In this document: positions 16,153-20,562 of the stretch, one piece after another
How the letters are laid out: every line of letters starts with the position of its first letter
Numbering within the stretch: position 1 is the first letter of the stretch
NCBI GenBank assembly: GCA_963804995.1
Contig: CAWDSK010000006.1
Coordinates: forward strand, 288,001-352,000
Reading direction: 5' to 3'
DNA length: 64,000 nucleotides
From: an uncultured Acidobacteriota bacterium
GTDB lineage: Bacteria; Acidobacteriota; Terriglobia; UBA7540
Made by a program: the position numbers and the translations under genes
Notes under the pieces: generated by a model
Database searches by the model: none
What the model was told of the DNA's origin: nothing
Seen by the model: the letters and a program-made list of their open reading frames with translations, nothing else

Positions 16153-16398
16153 TCAGGCAGCCCGATCGTAACGATGATGCAGCCCGCCAAGTCGATCCTG
16201 AGATAGGATGCGCCCCGAGGCTTTGGAGCGAATTCTGTGGTCGGGGGTTCCCTTCCTCAACCCAAGGTGCGTGCGGTCTTCGTGGTAGTAGTGAACGTAT
16301 TCAGAGAGCATACGTTTCAAATGGCGTTCATTCACCGCAATGACGTGATCCAGTAGATCTTGTCGGCAGCTTTCAACCCAACGCTCCCCTACGCCATT
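16153..16398 (-). pseudogene. C-terminal part of split rve transposase
   Basis: NGVGERWVESCRQDLLDHVI..GGLHHRYDRAA. Confidence 0.9.
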
Positions 16399-16691
16399 GG
16401 ATCAGGTCGTCAACTACACACCATAGAGACTATTCAAAACGACGTTTCCGAGTAACTCACCCTTACCATCCACTGTTCCAACGTGAATTCGAATGGGTGG
16501 ACTACCGCCAGAACTGGGGGGAGGACCGAGTGTATTTCTACGACGAAGGAGGCCAGTTGACCTCGCTACCGGCGCGGTGGACGAGTGTCGTGGGGGAGGA
16601 CCCATTCGTGGTCATAGGGGGAGGCCGCTCGTATTTTCGCGTTGAGGACCTGATTGAATTGGTGCGTTTGGTGGAGGGTTTACGGTCCTGA
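16399..16691 (+). CDS. DUF5372 (Y4bD-like) protein, 5' end missing in the integrated state
   Basis: FRVTHPYHPL..RQNWGEDRVYF..SLPARWT; frame is open from the element end with no ATG/GTG/TTG before 16497. Confidence 0.75.
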
Positions 16692-16705
16692 AGCCCCGGA
16701 AGGTC

Positions 16706-16747
16706 TGTAAAGGGAATTACGCCGTTTGTGTTAAAGGGATTATGTCG
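16706..16747 (+). repeat. Two imperfect 19-bp direct repeats, 23-bp period
   Basis: TGTAAAGGGAATTACGCCG / TGTTAAAGGGATTATGTCG. Confidence 0.6.
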
Positions 16748-16841
16748 GAGCTTGAGCCGAAGTCCAGAGTTTTCGGTGGGTGTGTGAGTGCAATATCCGC
16801 TTATTGTGCAACACAAATTCGGGTCGGAGGATAGAAAAGGC

Positions 16842-16870
16842 TTGACAGGGAGCAAGAGAATGTATATAAT
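16842..16870 (+). promoter_or_regulatory. Consensus sigma70 promoter of the recombinase operon
   Basis: TTGACA-17 nt-TATAAT, upstream of GGAGGAG and ATG 16912. Confidence 0.85.
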
Positions 16871-16911
16871 TAACATTACACTCGTTTGCCGGATTTGCTC
16901 CGGAGGAGCCC

Positions 16912-17379
16912 ATGTCCCCTTCCTCACGCCACGATGCCAAGCGCCATATCCTGCGCTCCCAAGGTACCTTGAATCCCCGCCCGCAGGAGGTGGCCCACGC
17001 CCTGTTCCAGGACAGCGACTTCTTCGATCCCCGGGACTTGCTGCAGGTCAAGTACGAGATGCTGCGCCAAGTGAGGGTCGAAAACCAAGCGGTGAGCCAA
17101 GCGGCGGAGGCTTTTGGTTTCTCCAGACCCTCCTTCTACCTCGCCCAGGCGGGCTTCGTAGCCAGGGGACTCGCAGGATTGATTCCCCAGAAACGGGGAC
17201 CTCGGCACGCCCACAAGCTCACGGCCGAGGTAATGGAGTTCGTCCGGCAGGCCCGAGCTGCCGAACCCTCCTTGCGGAGCGAGGAACTGGCGGCCCGGGT
17301 GAAGAAAGCCTTCCGTCTACGGGTCCATCCTCGCAGCTTGGAGCGCCGGCTTCGGCAGCAGCAAAAAAAACGACGTTGA
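16912..17379 (+). CDS. Helix-turn-helix protein
   Basis: FFDPRDLLQVKYEMLR, AAEAFGFSRPSFY, GLIPQKRGPR. Confidence 0.85.
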   Translation: MSPSSRHDAKRHILRSQGTLNPRPQEVAHALFQDSDFFDPRDLLQVKYEMLRQVRVENQAVSQAAEAFGFSRPSFYLAQAGFVARGLAGLIPQKRGPRHAHKLTAEVMEFVRQARAAEPSLRSEELAARVKKAFRLRVHPRSLERRLRQQQKKRR

Positions 17380-17681
17380 GCGACCCTCCCGTTGCTCCCC
17401 TGATGGCCCAGGAGGGGATCGTAAACCAATATGAGGAACTCCGGCGACAAGTGCGGGGTGAGTTAGGCGGCAGGCGCGGAGCCTTGGGCCTGGCGCTGTT
17501 TATTCGCCAGGGGATGAAAGGCTGGATGGAAGCCTGGTCCCACTGCCTGCCGGGTGGGATTCCGATGAAACCCCAGAATCCGTCCGGCCCTGAGGAGAGG
17601 GTTCCTCTCGATCTGCACACGGAAGTGGTTACGATTCTGGCGAGCATGGTACTTCACAGTCGGCCGGAGGTGAGAGGATGA
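17376..17681 (+). CDS. Small hypothetical protein of the element
   Basis: TTGA and ATGA overlaps with neighbours; YEELR..GLALFIRQGMKGW. Confidence 0.7.
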   Translation: MSDPPVAPLMAQEGIVNQYEELRRQVRGELGGRRGALGLALFIRQGMKGWMEAWSHCLPGGIPMKPQNPSGPEERVPLDLHTEVVTILASMVLHSRPEVRG

Positions 17682-19771
17682 GAACCGAAATGCCGCAGAA
17701 GGTTCAAGCCCACCATTTGAAACGCGACGCCTACCTGTATATCCGGCAGTCCACGCTTCGGCAGGTCTTTGAGAATACCGAGAGCACCCAGCGCCAGTAC
17801 GCGTTACGCCAACAGGCCGTGGCCCTGGGCTGGCCTTTGGAACGGATCATCGTGATCGACAACGATCAAGGCCAGTCGGGAGCTTCGGCGGTAGACCGAG
17901 AGGGATTTCAAAGGTTGGTGAGTGAAGTGGGGATGGGGCGAGCAGGGATCGTTCTGGGTCTCGAGGTGTCGCGCCTGGCGCGCAACTCCACGGACTGGCA
18001 TCGACTGCTGGAGATCTGCGCGCTCACCGACACGCTCATTTTGGATGAAGATGGCATCTACGACCCGGCGCACTTTAATGACCGCCTGCTGTTGGGGCTG
18101 AAAGGCACGATGAGCGAGGCGGAACTGCACGTGCTGCGAGCCCGGTTGCGAGGCGGAATCCTCAGCAAAGCTCGGCGCGGTGAGTTGGAGATCCCACCTC
18201 CGGTCGGCTTGGTCTATAACGGCTCGGGGCAACTCGTTCTCGATCCGGACCAGCAGGTGCAACAGGGCCTTCGACTCTTGTTTGAAACCTTCCGTCGTAC
18301 GGGATCCGCCCTGGCCACGGTGAAGGCCTTTCGCCAGCAGGGGCTGCTGTTTCCCCGCCGCCTGCGGGCGGGGCCCCACCAAGGAGAGTTGGTATGGGTG
18401 GAACTTGTTCACAGCCATGTCCTGCGCGTTTTGCACAATCCTCGGTATGCCGGGGCCTACGTCTTTGGCCGGAGTCAGACGCGCAAGAAGCTGGAGGGTG
18501 GCGTGACGGTGAAGTGGTTGCCTCGCGAGGAGTGGGACACTTGCCTTCCTGGGGCCCATGCGGGTTACCTCTCCTGGGAAGAATATGAGAGCAATCAGCG
18601 GCGGTTACGGGAATCCGCGCAAGCTTGGGGTCCCGACCGTCGTCAAAGCCCTCCGCGGGAAGGTCCAGCGCTTCTGCAGGGATTAGTGATCTGTGGCCGC
18701 TGTGGGAATCGGATGACCGTGCGTTATCATGTTCACCGGTCACGCCTGGCCCCCCATTATGTGTGTCAGCGGTACGGTATCGAACACGCTCAAACCATCT
18801 GCCAGACGGTTCCTGGAGCGGGTATCGACCAGGCCATCGGGGAACTGCTGATCGAAGTGGTCACTCCGTTAGCCCTGGAGGTGGCGCTGAGCGTGCAGCA
18901 AGAACTTCAGTCTCGTTGGGAAGAAGCGGATCGGTTGCGCCAAACCCAAGTCGAGCGCGCCCGGTATGAGGCGGAGCTGGCCGAGCGGCGCTACTTGCGT
19001 TGCGATCCCGACAACCGGCTCGTGGCGGATTCGCTCGAGGCCGACTGGAACCACAAGCTGCGTGCTCTGGGAGAGGCTCAGCAAGAGTATCAACGTCAAC
19101 GTCAGGTCGACCGTGGGTTGTGTCGGGAAGAGGAACGCGCTCAGATTTTTGCCCTGGCCACAGACTTCCCTCGGCTGTGGCGCGATGCGAAAACGCCACA
19201 TCGAGAACGGAAGCGTATGGTCCGCCTTCTATTGGAAGACGTCACGTTGACCCGCAACCATGAGATCACGCTTCAGATCCGCTTCAAGGGGGGAGCTACA
19301 AAGACCCTGCATTTGCCCATCCCCCTCAATGCCTGGAAACAGCGCACCACCAAGCCGGAGGTGGTGGCGGAGATCGACCGGCTCCTGGATCAACGTACCG
19401 ATCGGCAGATCGCTAGCCTGCTGAATGAACGCGGCTGGCTCTCGGGCGAAGGCAGGCCCTTCAGCCCTCACATCGTTGCGCGCATACGGCGTAACTATGC
19501 CTTGAAGAGCGGTTACACTCGCCTACGCGGAGCCGGCCTGTTGACCCTGCAAGAGATGGCTAAGCTGCTCGGCATCTCCACCGGGTGGGTGAAAGTCTGG
19601 CGGGACCATGGTCTGTTAAGAGCTCAAGCCTACAACGAGAAAAACGAGTGTTTATATGAACACCCCGGCGATGATCCGCCGCGCAAGATGCAAGGGACGA
19701 AGCTCGCTGCCAGGCAGCGATTCTTCGAGGACCCCTCGAATCATACCAATGAGGTGCAGTATGAAGCATAA
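17678..19771 (+). CDS. Large serine recombinase (697 aa)
   Basis: YIRQS catalytic motif, VSRLAR, LHNPRYAG, CGRCG zinc ribbon, coiled coil, C-terminal HTH. Confidence 0.95.
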   Translation: MRTEMPQKVQAHHLKRDAYLYIRQSTLRQVFENTESTQRQYALRQQAVALGWPLERIIVIDNDQGQSGASAVDREGFQRLVSEVGMGRAGIVLGLEVSRLARNSTDWHRLLEICALTDTLILDEDGIYDPAHFNDRLLLGLKGTMSEAELHVLRARLRGGILSKARRGELEIPPPVGLVYNGSGQLVLDPDQQVQQGLRLLFETFRRTGSALATVKAFRQQGLLFPRRLRAGPHQGELVWVELVHSHVLRVLHNPRYAGAYVFGRSQTRKKLEGGVTVKWLPREEWDTCLPGAHAGYLSWEEYESNQRRLRESAQAWGPDRRQSPPREGPALLQGLVICGRCGNRMTVRYHVHRSRLAPHYVCQRYGIEHAQTICQTVPGAGIDQAIGELLIEVVTPLALEVALSVQQELQSRWEEADRLRQTQVERARYEAELAERRYLRCDPDNRLVADSLEADWNHKLRALGEAQQEYQRQRQVDRGLCREEERAQIFALATDFPRLWRDAKTPHRERKRMVRLLLEDVTLTRNHEITLQIRFKGGATKTLHLPIPLNAWKQRTTKPEVVAEIDRLLDQRTDRQIASLLNERGWLSGEGRPFSPHIVARIRRNYALKSGYTRLRGAGLLTLQEMAKLLGISTGWVKVWRDHGLLRAQAYNEKNECLYEHPGDDPPRKMQGTKLAARQRFFEDPSNHTNEVQYEA

Positions 19772-19776
19772 GCCTT

Positions 19777-20562
19777 CTGCCAGGGACTCTCGAAGGAGGT
19801 CCGCACCGGGCTCATCTTCAGGGATCGAACGGCCACGGGGACCTCCAACCCGTATTTCGCATCCCGGTCGAAGATGAGAAACCGAGGAGCCATCTCAAAC
19901 GGGAACGCTTCTCGCAGCTGTTGGACGACCCACAGGCTAGTCGGGTGCTTGGTGACGTTGAAGTGCAGGATACGTCGCCGGCCATGGCTGATGACGAAGA
20001 AGCCATAGAGCACGCCAAAGGTTAATGTTGGCACGGTGAAGAAATTCATGGCCGCAATCGCTTCCCTGTGGTTTCGGAGGAAGGCGAGCCAACGTTGGGC
20101 TGGCTCGGGATCTCTCGGCGCCCGTTTCATCCAACGCGAGATCGTTCTCTCGCAAAGATCAAAACCGAGCATAAGAAGCTCGCCGTGGATGCGCGGCGCT
20201 CCCCAGGTTGGATTCTCAACAACCATCCGGAAGATCAACTCTCGGACTCCCTTCGGTGTCGGCTTCCTCCCAACCCGCGTCCTGACTTTCGAGATCAGAT
20301 TCCAGTACAAGCGAAAACCAGCTCGGTGCCACCGAATTACGGTTTCAGGTGTGACGACGATCAGGGCTTGTTCCCATCCTGACCAGTATCGACGAACGGC
20401 AACCCAGAACAATTTGTCGAACGGGCTCAGGCACGGGCGTCGACGCCGCCGCTTCAATACGGCGAGTTGTTGGCGTAACGCAAGATTCTCAAGGAGGAGA
20501 CTTCGTCGCATGCGAAAGAAGCGAATCAGCGTTCCGACGCACAGGCCGATGAATTGAAGCAT
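19777..20562 (-). pseudogene. N-terminal part of split rve transposase
   Basis: LENLALRQQL, WGAPRIHGEL, FDRD, SPWQ; first catalytic Asp appears as Asn (AMNFF). Confidence 0.9.

Follow-up and report, generated by a model that had tools for sequence, protein, structure and literature searches.

A DUF5372 gene with its body and its probable start signals at opposite ends of a large serine recombinase element in an Acidobacteriota bacterium

Introduction

How can a mobile element carry a conserved gene for which, in its integrated form, it offers no start codon? The question is raised by a 3378-bp element at positions 16399-19776 of a 64,000-nucleotide stretch of DNA from an uncultured Acidobacteriota bacterium (GenBank assembly GCA_963804995.1, contig CAWDSK010000006.1, positions 288,001 to 352,000 of the forward strand), which we call the window. 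The element has four genes, all on the plus strand, and is moved by a large serine recombinase (LSR). Its first gene encodes a protein of the DUF5372 family (PF17342) and begins directly at the left end of the element. A first-pass annotation, made from the sequence letters, had proposed that this gene is split across the attachment site (att) and is rebuilt only when the element circularises. It had also guessed that the protein is a directionality, integration or targeting factor.

LSRs are prized for genome engineering, and the direction of their reaction is set by a small cofactor. How the direction is set in LSR elements other than phages is, to our knowledge, largely unclear. Here we describe the ends, the relatives and the targets of the element, the search for its circle, and models of the DUF5372 protein alone and together with the recombinase. 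We consider it likely that the element is an excisable LSR transposon in which the DUF5372 gene is completed at the circle junction, and that the protein is a cofactor of the recombinase that would be made in the excised state.

Results

The DUF5372 frame is open at the left end and has no start there

The DUF5372 frame was read from the left end of the element. It is open from 16344, behind the stop codon TGA at 16341-16343, and it contains no ATG, GTG or TTG before the GTG at 16497-16499, the first canonical start codon within the element. The peptide FRVTHPYHPL is already encoded at 16446, as the first-pass annotation had observed. The match to the DUF5372 profile starts at a valine at 16452, 45 nt before this GTG. 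The domain with its stop codon reaches to 16691 on the plus strand and covers positions 1-78 of the 78 Pfam positions with 79.3 bits, against a cut-off of 25. Upstream of the domain lies an N-terminal extension (16398-16451, plus strand) that consists of the codon T|GG, where the bar marks the crossover, and 17 further codons, none of them a start codon. An open reading frame (ORF) beginning at the GTG would give a truncated product of 64 aa, which matches only Pfam positions 19-78 with 53.6 bits and loses 18 of the 78 positions, including the invariant HPxHP motif.

The same region was compared in related loci, 80 from genomes and 80 from metagenomes, nearly all of which have the same gene order. 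For the left end, 130 distinct sequences from the crossover to T-H-P were collected from 164 loci. Their length is 57 nt in 126 cases, 60 nt in two, 48 nt in one and 63 nt in one, and all of these are multiples of three. In-frame stop codons amount to one in 2471 codons (in L095 only), against 22 and 143 in 2341 codons of the two other frames. The extension is open and in register in 129 of the 130 distinct relatives, and third-position wobble is seen in the codons for F-R-V-T that immediately precede the Pfam boundary. No start codon is present within the extension in 90 of the 130, GTG or TTG only, at varying places, in 39, and ATG in one.

The position of an in-element start is not conserved across the relatives, and most such starts lie after the invariant HPxHP motif. 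N-termini of the type 'MTHPFHP', as found in databases, were considered as real internal starts and rejected; 80 loci were collected with such proteins, all readable ones show V/I-T-H-P behind the same open extension, and these N-termini appear to be picks of a GTG valine codon by gene callers. The first-pass annotation had named an internal start of the homologues as a reason to give up the split gene, and no conserved one was found.

The probable start signals lie at the right end and are conserved in the family

At the right end of the element, a Shine-Dalgarno (SD)-like GAGG at 19751-19754 is located 6 nt before an ATG at 19761-19763. The GAGG overlaps the right-arm motif GGTGCAGT at 19753-19760 (plus strand), and the ATG overlaps the last codons of the recombinase gene, which stops with TAA at 19769-19771. 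The segment 19761-19776 (plus strand) holds the ATG, four codons and the initial base of the junction codon, and it ends in the right TT at 19775-19776. When the right and the left end were joined through one TT, the 16 nt and the following 290 nt gave 102 codons without a stop. The signals, the in-frame join and the length of 102 aa had all been read in this way in the first-pass annotation.

To identify the right ends of the relatives, a position matrix was built from the right arm, its three start-codon positions were masked, and the 3' region of the recombinase gene was scanned with it. From 91 loci, 70 distinct end pairs were obtained, and 65 of these have a recognisable right end; L005, L039, L117, L133 and L161 have none, owing to a cut contig or a disrupted end. 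The start codon is always found 16 nt from the element end, as ATG in 41 of the 65 distinct right ends and as GTG in 23. The one remaining right end, that of L022, has CAG, and its next codon is an in-frame GTG. An SD-like motif is present 3-14 nt upstream of the start in 64 of 65, and the joined frame is open into the DUF5372 domain in all 63 evaluable end pairs. The comparison of the SD motif, the start and the frame across the homologous junctions, which had been suggested at the outset, thus came out in favour of the split gene, with a start codon in 64 of 65.

In 10 of the 65 right ends the recombinase gene already stops upstream of the start, at 17-46 nt from the end of the element, and therefore recombinase coding cannot explain the conservation of the start there. 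A recombinase tree of 35 rows, from which the last 12 alignment columns had been dropped, contains at least nine switches between ATG and GTG. The T of the start codon is a synonymous site for the recombinase and is kept in 29 of 30 representatives.

The integration flanks were inspected as another source of a start. An in-frame start codon is absent in 94 of 115 distinct flanks; ATG is present in 9, and only GTG or TTG in 12. An SD-like motif upstream of DUF5372 was found in none of these 115 flanks. One copy in the own genome, L003, has the flank sequence ATG GAT T|GG, and the gene call of the genome uses that ATG (P0001, 99 aa).

Taken together, a frame that is open from the crossover without a start and a start codon 16 nt from the other end support that the gene body and the translation start of DUF5372 lie on opposite sides of the crossover of attP, the attachment site of the circle.

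The element ends are exact and the targets are transposase genes

The genome from which the window was taken (7.55 Mb, nine contigs) has four copies of the element, which differ by 0-3 substitutions and are each located within a different transposase gene. The flanks of all four copies diverge precisely at ...TT|GG at the left end and at ...CCTT| at the right end, and the left copy of the crossover dinucleotide (16397-16398 in the window) is TT in all four. When the flanks were joined in silico, open frames of 324-383 aa were restored on the minus strand. A 195-nt contig from a peat run joins 16396 to 19775 and skips exactly 3378 bases, with 2 ambiguous letters; it represents the empty site. 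The TT is shared by both ends of the four copies and the empty site is precise, which may reflect recombination at a 2-bp crossover between a short attP and attB; the circular intermediate itself was not seen. The TT is present at the left crossover in 145 of 164 related loci, where the flanks diverge upstream of it, and in relatives with several copies the flanks differ between the copies. The element ends and the TT crossover are correct as they were placed in the first-pass annotation.

In the window, the element interrupts a DDE transposase gene of the IS481/IS3-like type on the minus strand. The 3' part of this gene is the left flank and the B-arm of attL (16153-16396, weak rve_2 and IS3 matches), and the 5' part is the right flank and the B'-arm of attR (19777-20562, HTH_32 and HTH_21 and weak IS481/IS3 matches). 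The right-flank part ends with ...F-E-S-P-W-Q at the crossover, and the left-flank part reads N-G-V-G-E-R-W after it. On the transposase strand, a glutamate stands at position 5 from the crossover in 117 of 124 distinct left flanks, and 108 of the 124 fit (N/K)-(G/A/P/S)-x-x-E. Judged by these flanks, the family inserts in DDE transposase genes that belong to several insertion sequence (IS) families, at the codons that surround the catalytic glutamate, and the element is a predicted parasite of other transposons that inactivates them. DUF5372 was found in 13 of 301 sampled genomes of the phylum, the own genome included, and 11 matches are present in one complete genome of 8.8 Mb. Such a patchy and bursty distribution is typical of an active mobile element.

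The copies and the relatives also differ in some details. Window position 16408 is C in L001 and L002 and T in L003 and L004, which changes TCG to TTG at the fourth codon, counting T|GG as the first; the T allele puts an in-frame TTG near the left end in two of the four own-genome copies. L004 (G000:C6:764621-767999) is 3379 bp long, and a 1-nt insertion near the equivalent of window positions 17930-17960 shifts the frame of its recombinase, which matches as two overlapping pieces in different frames. The related element of L008 measures 4824 bp instead of about 3356 bp and has a nested insertion of about 1.45 kb inside the recombinase gene (at about 8180-9640 of L008). In L117, positions 482-1261 are a deletion derivative, in which the C-terminal quarter of the recombinase (residues 528-685) comes immediately after DUF5372.

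The DUF5372 protein is predicted to contact the recombinase

The DUF5372 protein was modelled with AlphaFold2 at a mean pLDDT of 80. The model has an SH3/KOW-like barrel, which spans residues 11-63, and two helices; its strands are at residues 15-18, 29-38, 41-47 and 53-57. The GTG at 16497 corresponds to residue 33 of the model, inside strand 2 and after strand 1. The 64-aa product would therefore, in the modelled fold, be missing strand 1 and half of strand 2, along with the invariant HPxHP. Fold searches returned a generic SH3/KOW-like barrel only (best Foldseek E value 0.013; VIA Z at most 5.3), from which a function is not readable. No publication on DUF5372, y4bD, y4pK or PF17342 was found in the searched literature.

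A complex of the recombinase with DUF5372 was also modelled, with alignments of 36 rows for the recombinase and 72 rows for DUF5372. It scored 0.73, compared to 0.00 for the best control. A score at this mark is seen for 116 of 157 solved complexes and for 2 of 215 mismatched pairs; the counts apply only approximately here, as the complex was modelled with our own alignments. The runs agree in at least 98% of the contacts, and the partner has a pLDDT of at least 71. On the recombinase side, the modelled interface comprises residues 338-343, which include zinc-ribbon cysteines, as well as residues 394-414 and 482-541, which correspond to both feet of the coiled coil and to the C-terminal half of the zinc domain. 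On the DUF5372 side, it comprises residues 20-25 (HPYHPL) and 67-95. The model suggests that DUF5372 binds at the junction of the zinc ribbon and the coiled coil of the recombinase, and the early guess of a directionality or integration factor gains support from this predicted complex. Verified recombination directionality factors (RDFs) of large serine integrases are likewise predicted or seen at the junction of DBD2 and the coiled coil (PMC12286644).

The recombinase operon has an intact promoter inside the element

A sigma-70-type promoter, TTGACA-17-TATAAT, is located between the first and the second gene at 16842-16870 (plus strand) and matches the consensus at 12 of 12 positions. It had been named in the first-pass annotation as the promoter of the operon, and it is conserved in the relatives: TTGAC followed by a -10-like box is present in 118 of 134 distinct intergenic regions between the DUF5372 and the second gene. 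The strict pattern was found in only 14 of the 134, an undercount because the -10 box of the relatives is mostly CATAAT. It is the only strong promoter, and it is internal and intact, with its -35 and -10 boxes on the same side of the junction. In most relatives a TTTACA/TTACA motif is conserved 5-7 nt downstream of the -10 box (16871-16885 in the window); it may be an operator or a start-site element.

The second gene (16912-17379, plus strand) encodes a helix-turn-helix (HTH) protein of 155 aa with matches to HTH_32, HTH_29 and HTH_28, and it is conserved in the relatives. The protein shares similarity with the N-terminal part that binds DNA in IS630 and IS481 transposases (E values 7e-11 and 6e-10, far below the family cut-offs), a curious likeness given that the element targets transposase genes. 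The third gene, ORF3 (17403-17681, plus strand; 92 aa from its ATG), has no family match in Pfam or NCBIfam. It is conserved at 31-60% identity in most relatives, and its stop codon overlaps the start of the recombinase gene in the sequence ATGA.

The recombinase gene (17678-19771, plus strand) encodes 697 aa with Resolvase, Recombinase and Zn_ribbon_recom domains. The catalytic domain PF00239 was found at residues 18-169 with an E value of 1.7e-18, PF07508 at 198-312 (DBD1) and PF13408 at 332-389 (DBD2). The residues R23-Q24-S25, with the nucleophilic serine of the catalytic domain, and the zinc-ribbon cysteines C339, C342, C363 and C375 are invariant in 36 homologues. Integration leaves the recombinase ORF intact, so the recombinase gene is not the one that is split.

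Evidence against a gene completed at the junction

Several observations weigh against a DUF5372 gene that is completed at the junction. A pattern for the circle junction, reading from the right end to the left end, had no match in the own genome and the metagenome contigs; the pattern was written in IUPAC code and fits roughly the majority subgroup of the family. No go-back joint was present in the contigs of four peat and wetland runs, so that the circle junction predicted by the first-pass annotation did not turn up in any of these sources. No circularly permuted contig was found, and in 0 of 160 related loci does the recombinase 3' end lie directly upstream of DUF5372. L020 and L117 were considered as permuted copies and rejected, the LSR 1.4 kb upstream of the DUF5372 gene of L020 being unrelated and L117 being the derivative of an internal deletion. 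Among 24 listed runs there was no RNA run that carries the element. Few and short-lived circles are to be expected of such elements, and the missing junctions in contigs do not count against them because contigs drop rare forms.

The counts themselves also have limits. The in-frame arrangement is inherited, and the 63-64 cases are not independent. The first-pass annotation had noted that a single in-frame join has a chance of one in three; this caveat is answered by the start, the frame and the openness throughout the family, and it stands in so far as the relatives do not amount to 64 independent trials. In a few loci, including L015, L050, L124, L144 and L151, the left dinucleotide is not TT; they count as 'open' by construction, and their ends are uncertain. 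Moreover, 40 of the 130 left ends do hold an in-frame GTG, TTG or ATG, among them the TTG at codon 4 of two own-genome copies.

A competing cause of the conservation is the attachment site. The right-arm motif GGTGCAGT and its reverse complement in the left arm, ACTACACA at 16413-16420 (plus strand; family consensus ACTRCACC), form an inverted repeat 15-22 nt from the crossover, which is probably the outer half-site of the recombinase. Both arms are conserved at positions 12-22. The function of the att site alone can explain the GGTG part of the SD motif, the 'S-T-A/T-P' codons and the fixed distances to the crossover. The symmetry of the repeat does not account for the restriction of the first base of the start codon to purines, for the conservation of T at the recombinase-synonymous site, or for the 12 codons between the repeat and the domain, which are open and length-constrained. 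Nor does it account for the conservation of right-arm positions -23/-24 and -5 to -11, which far exceeds that of the mirrored left-arm positions.

Discussion

From the comparison of the ends we infer that the circle forms and that its junction ORF is translated. The element would excise as a circle by recombination at the TT dinucleotides, and it would re-insert into other insertion sequences, within their transposase genes. The DUF5372 gene would contain the attP crossover close to its 5' terminus. While the element is integrated, the body of the gene stands at the left extreme without promoter, ribosome-binding site and start, and the SD motif and the ATG stand at the right extreme. Circularisation would make DUF5372, with its 102 aa, the last and translationally coupled cistron of an operon of promoter, HTH gene, ORF3 and LSR gene. 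DUF5372 would be a cofactor that is present only in the excised state and shifts which reaction the recombinase favours.

The sign of this effect is the least certain part of the account. We suppose that DUF5372 promotes integration or neutralises an excision factor of the integrated form. This sign is favoured because, if the protein were a classical excision factor absent until the circle has formed, the first excision would lack an explanation and re-insertion would be impeded. The other side of this point is a difficulty for the account as a whole, since a DUF5372 protein acting as a classical excision factor would look paradoxical if it is made only after excision. One may go further and regard the topology of the DNA as a sensor of the state of the element. 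The integrated form would then have the recombinase without the cofactor, possibly with ORF3 or the HTH protein as the excision factor, and the circle would have the recombinase with the cofactor and be led to integration; the family would be a specialised parasite of transposons aimed at their catalytic-glutamate codons. We put this extended version forward tentatively, as a possibility.

Three other explanations were weighed. The SD-like motif, the ATG or GTG and the frame might be by-products of the binding site in attP, and DUF5372 would then be made from integrated copies at an internal or near-cognate start. The inverted repeat overlaps the SD motif and abuts the start, with both arms conserved at positions 12-22; some in-frame start exists in 40 of the 130 left ends, and no circle junction was seen in the own genome, the metagenome contigs and the four runs, all of which agrees with this explanation. 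It would have to account, however, for 18 upstream codons that are open and in register and purposeless if untranslated, for in-element starts at unconserved positions that mostly follow the invariant HPxHP, and for integrated copies without an upstream promoter or SD motif. The far higher conservation of the right arm at -23/-24 and -5 to -11 also argues against it, as does the predicted recombinase interface, which uses residues 20-25 that are lost from the 64-aa product. We regard it as improbable. It is still less probable, and indeed very unlikely, that the target supplies the start codon and that expression depends on the context of the insertion. The gene call at L003 makes use of just such an ATG, and 21 of the 115 flanks have an in-frame start, but the other 94 have none and an SD-like motif is present in 0. 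Furthermore, the flank runs antisense to a transposase gene, a direction in which no promoter is known, and a conserved SD motif and start are present at the other end of the element.

Alternatively, the split gene is real and DUF5372 is a classical RDF, which promotes attL x attR and blocks attP x attB; it would prevent re-insertion in the donor site and would excise sister copies in trans. The model places the interface at the zinc-ribbon/coiled-coil junction, where verified RDFs are predicted or seen (PMC12286644). The four copies in the own genome and the 11 in a relative would provide sister elements, and the geometry of the att sites looks canonical, with the outer motif of attP at 15-22 nt and the conserved bases of attB within 12 nt. 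The first excision would need another factor or leaky translation, however, and a circle that does not replicate and prevents its own integration would disappear. We therefore hold a classical RDF to be rather doubtful, and continue to prefer a cofactor of the excised state that favours integration or counters excision.

If this preferred account is true, a cofactor gene put together only by excision would solve the directionality problem in a new and very compact way, with the control built into the position of the att site and not into a regulatory circuit. DUF5372, a widespread family without a described function, would gain a testable role. The inconsistent N-termini of DUF5372 proteins in databases would be explained as systematic mis-calls, with the start 3.3 kb away on the linear map. 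The targeting of the catalytic glutamate, seen in 117 of 124 distinct flanks, makes the family a natural 'transposon that kills transposons'. A description of serine recombinases aimed at transposase genes was not found in the searched literature, supplements excluded. Neither was an account of a junction-completed gene in a serine recombinase element, in agreement with the first-pass annotation, which knew of none for this family.

The arrangement has parallels in known systems. In the suicidal tyrosine integrases of the SSV1 type, pTN3 and pT26-2, attP is inside a gene of the element that is intact only in the circle; a review calls these integrases exclusive to archaea and likens the splitting of the gene to directionality control (PMC8371274). 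As in those elements, the crossover described here lies in an element gene, integration splits this gene, and the intact copy would exist only in the excised circle. The split gene of the suicidal integrases is the tyrosine recombinase itself, in archaea, whereas the present element is in a bacterium, its serine recombinase is intact and a small accessory gene is split. Also, only the SD motif, the start codon and four codons are set apart from the gene body here.

Expression that is tied to the excised circle is familiar from Tn4451/Tn4453, which are moved by TnpX, and from IS911. Lyras and Rood reportedly described a circle-junction promoter of Tn4451 and TnpX in 2000, and IS911, of the IS3 family, has the circle-junction promoter pjunc. 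Tn4451 is likewise moved by a large serine recombinase. In Tn4451 and IS911 the junction assembles a promoter for the recombinase or transposase, whereas here it would assemble the start and the frame of a different gene and the promoter is internal.

Like the RDFs of large serine integrases such as gp3, gp47 and SprB, which are small and of diverse folds, DUF5372 is small, encoded by a recombinase-adjacent gene and predicted to bind at the DBD2/coiled-coil region (PMC12286644). The known RDF genes are intact in the prophage and controlled by transcription; the DUF5372 gene would be intact only after excision, and the sign of its action may be reversed. The protein of the element is a full-length member of the y4bD/y4pK family (DUF5372), and 'Y4bD/Y4pK family protein' is among the names of the hits. 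In conclusion, the element is a new variant of known principles, in which the translation start of an accessory protein would be completed at the junction, next to an intact bacterial serine recombinase and an internal promoter.

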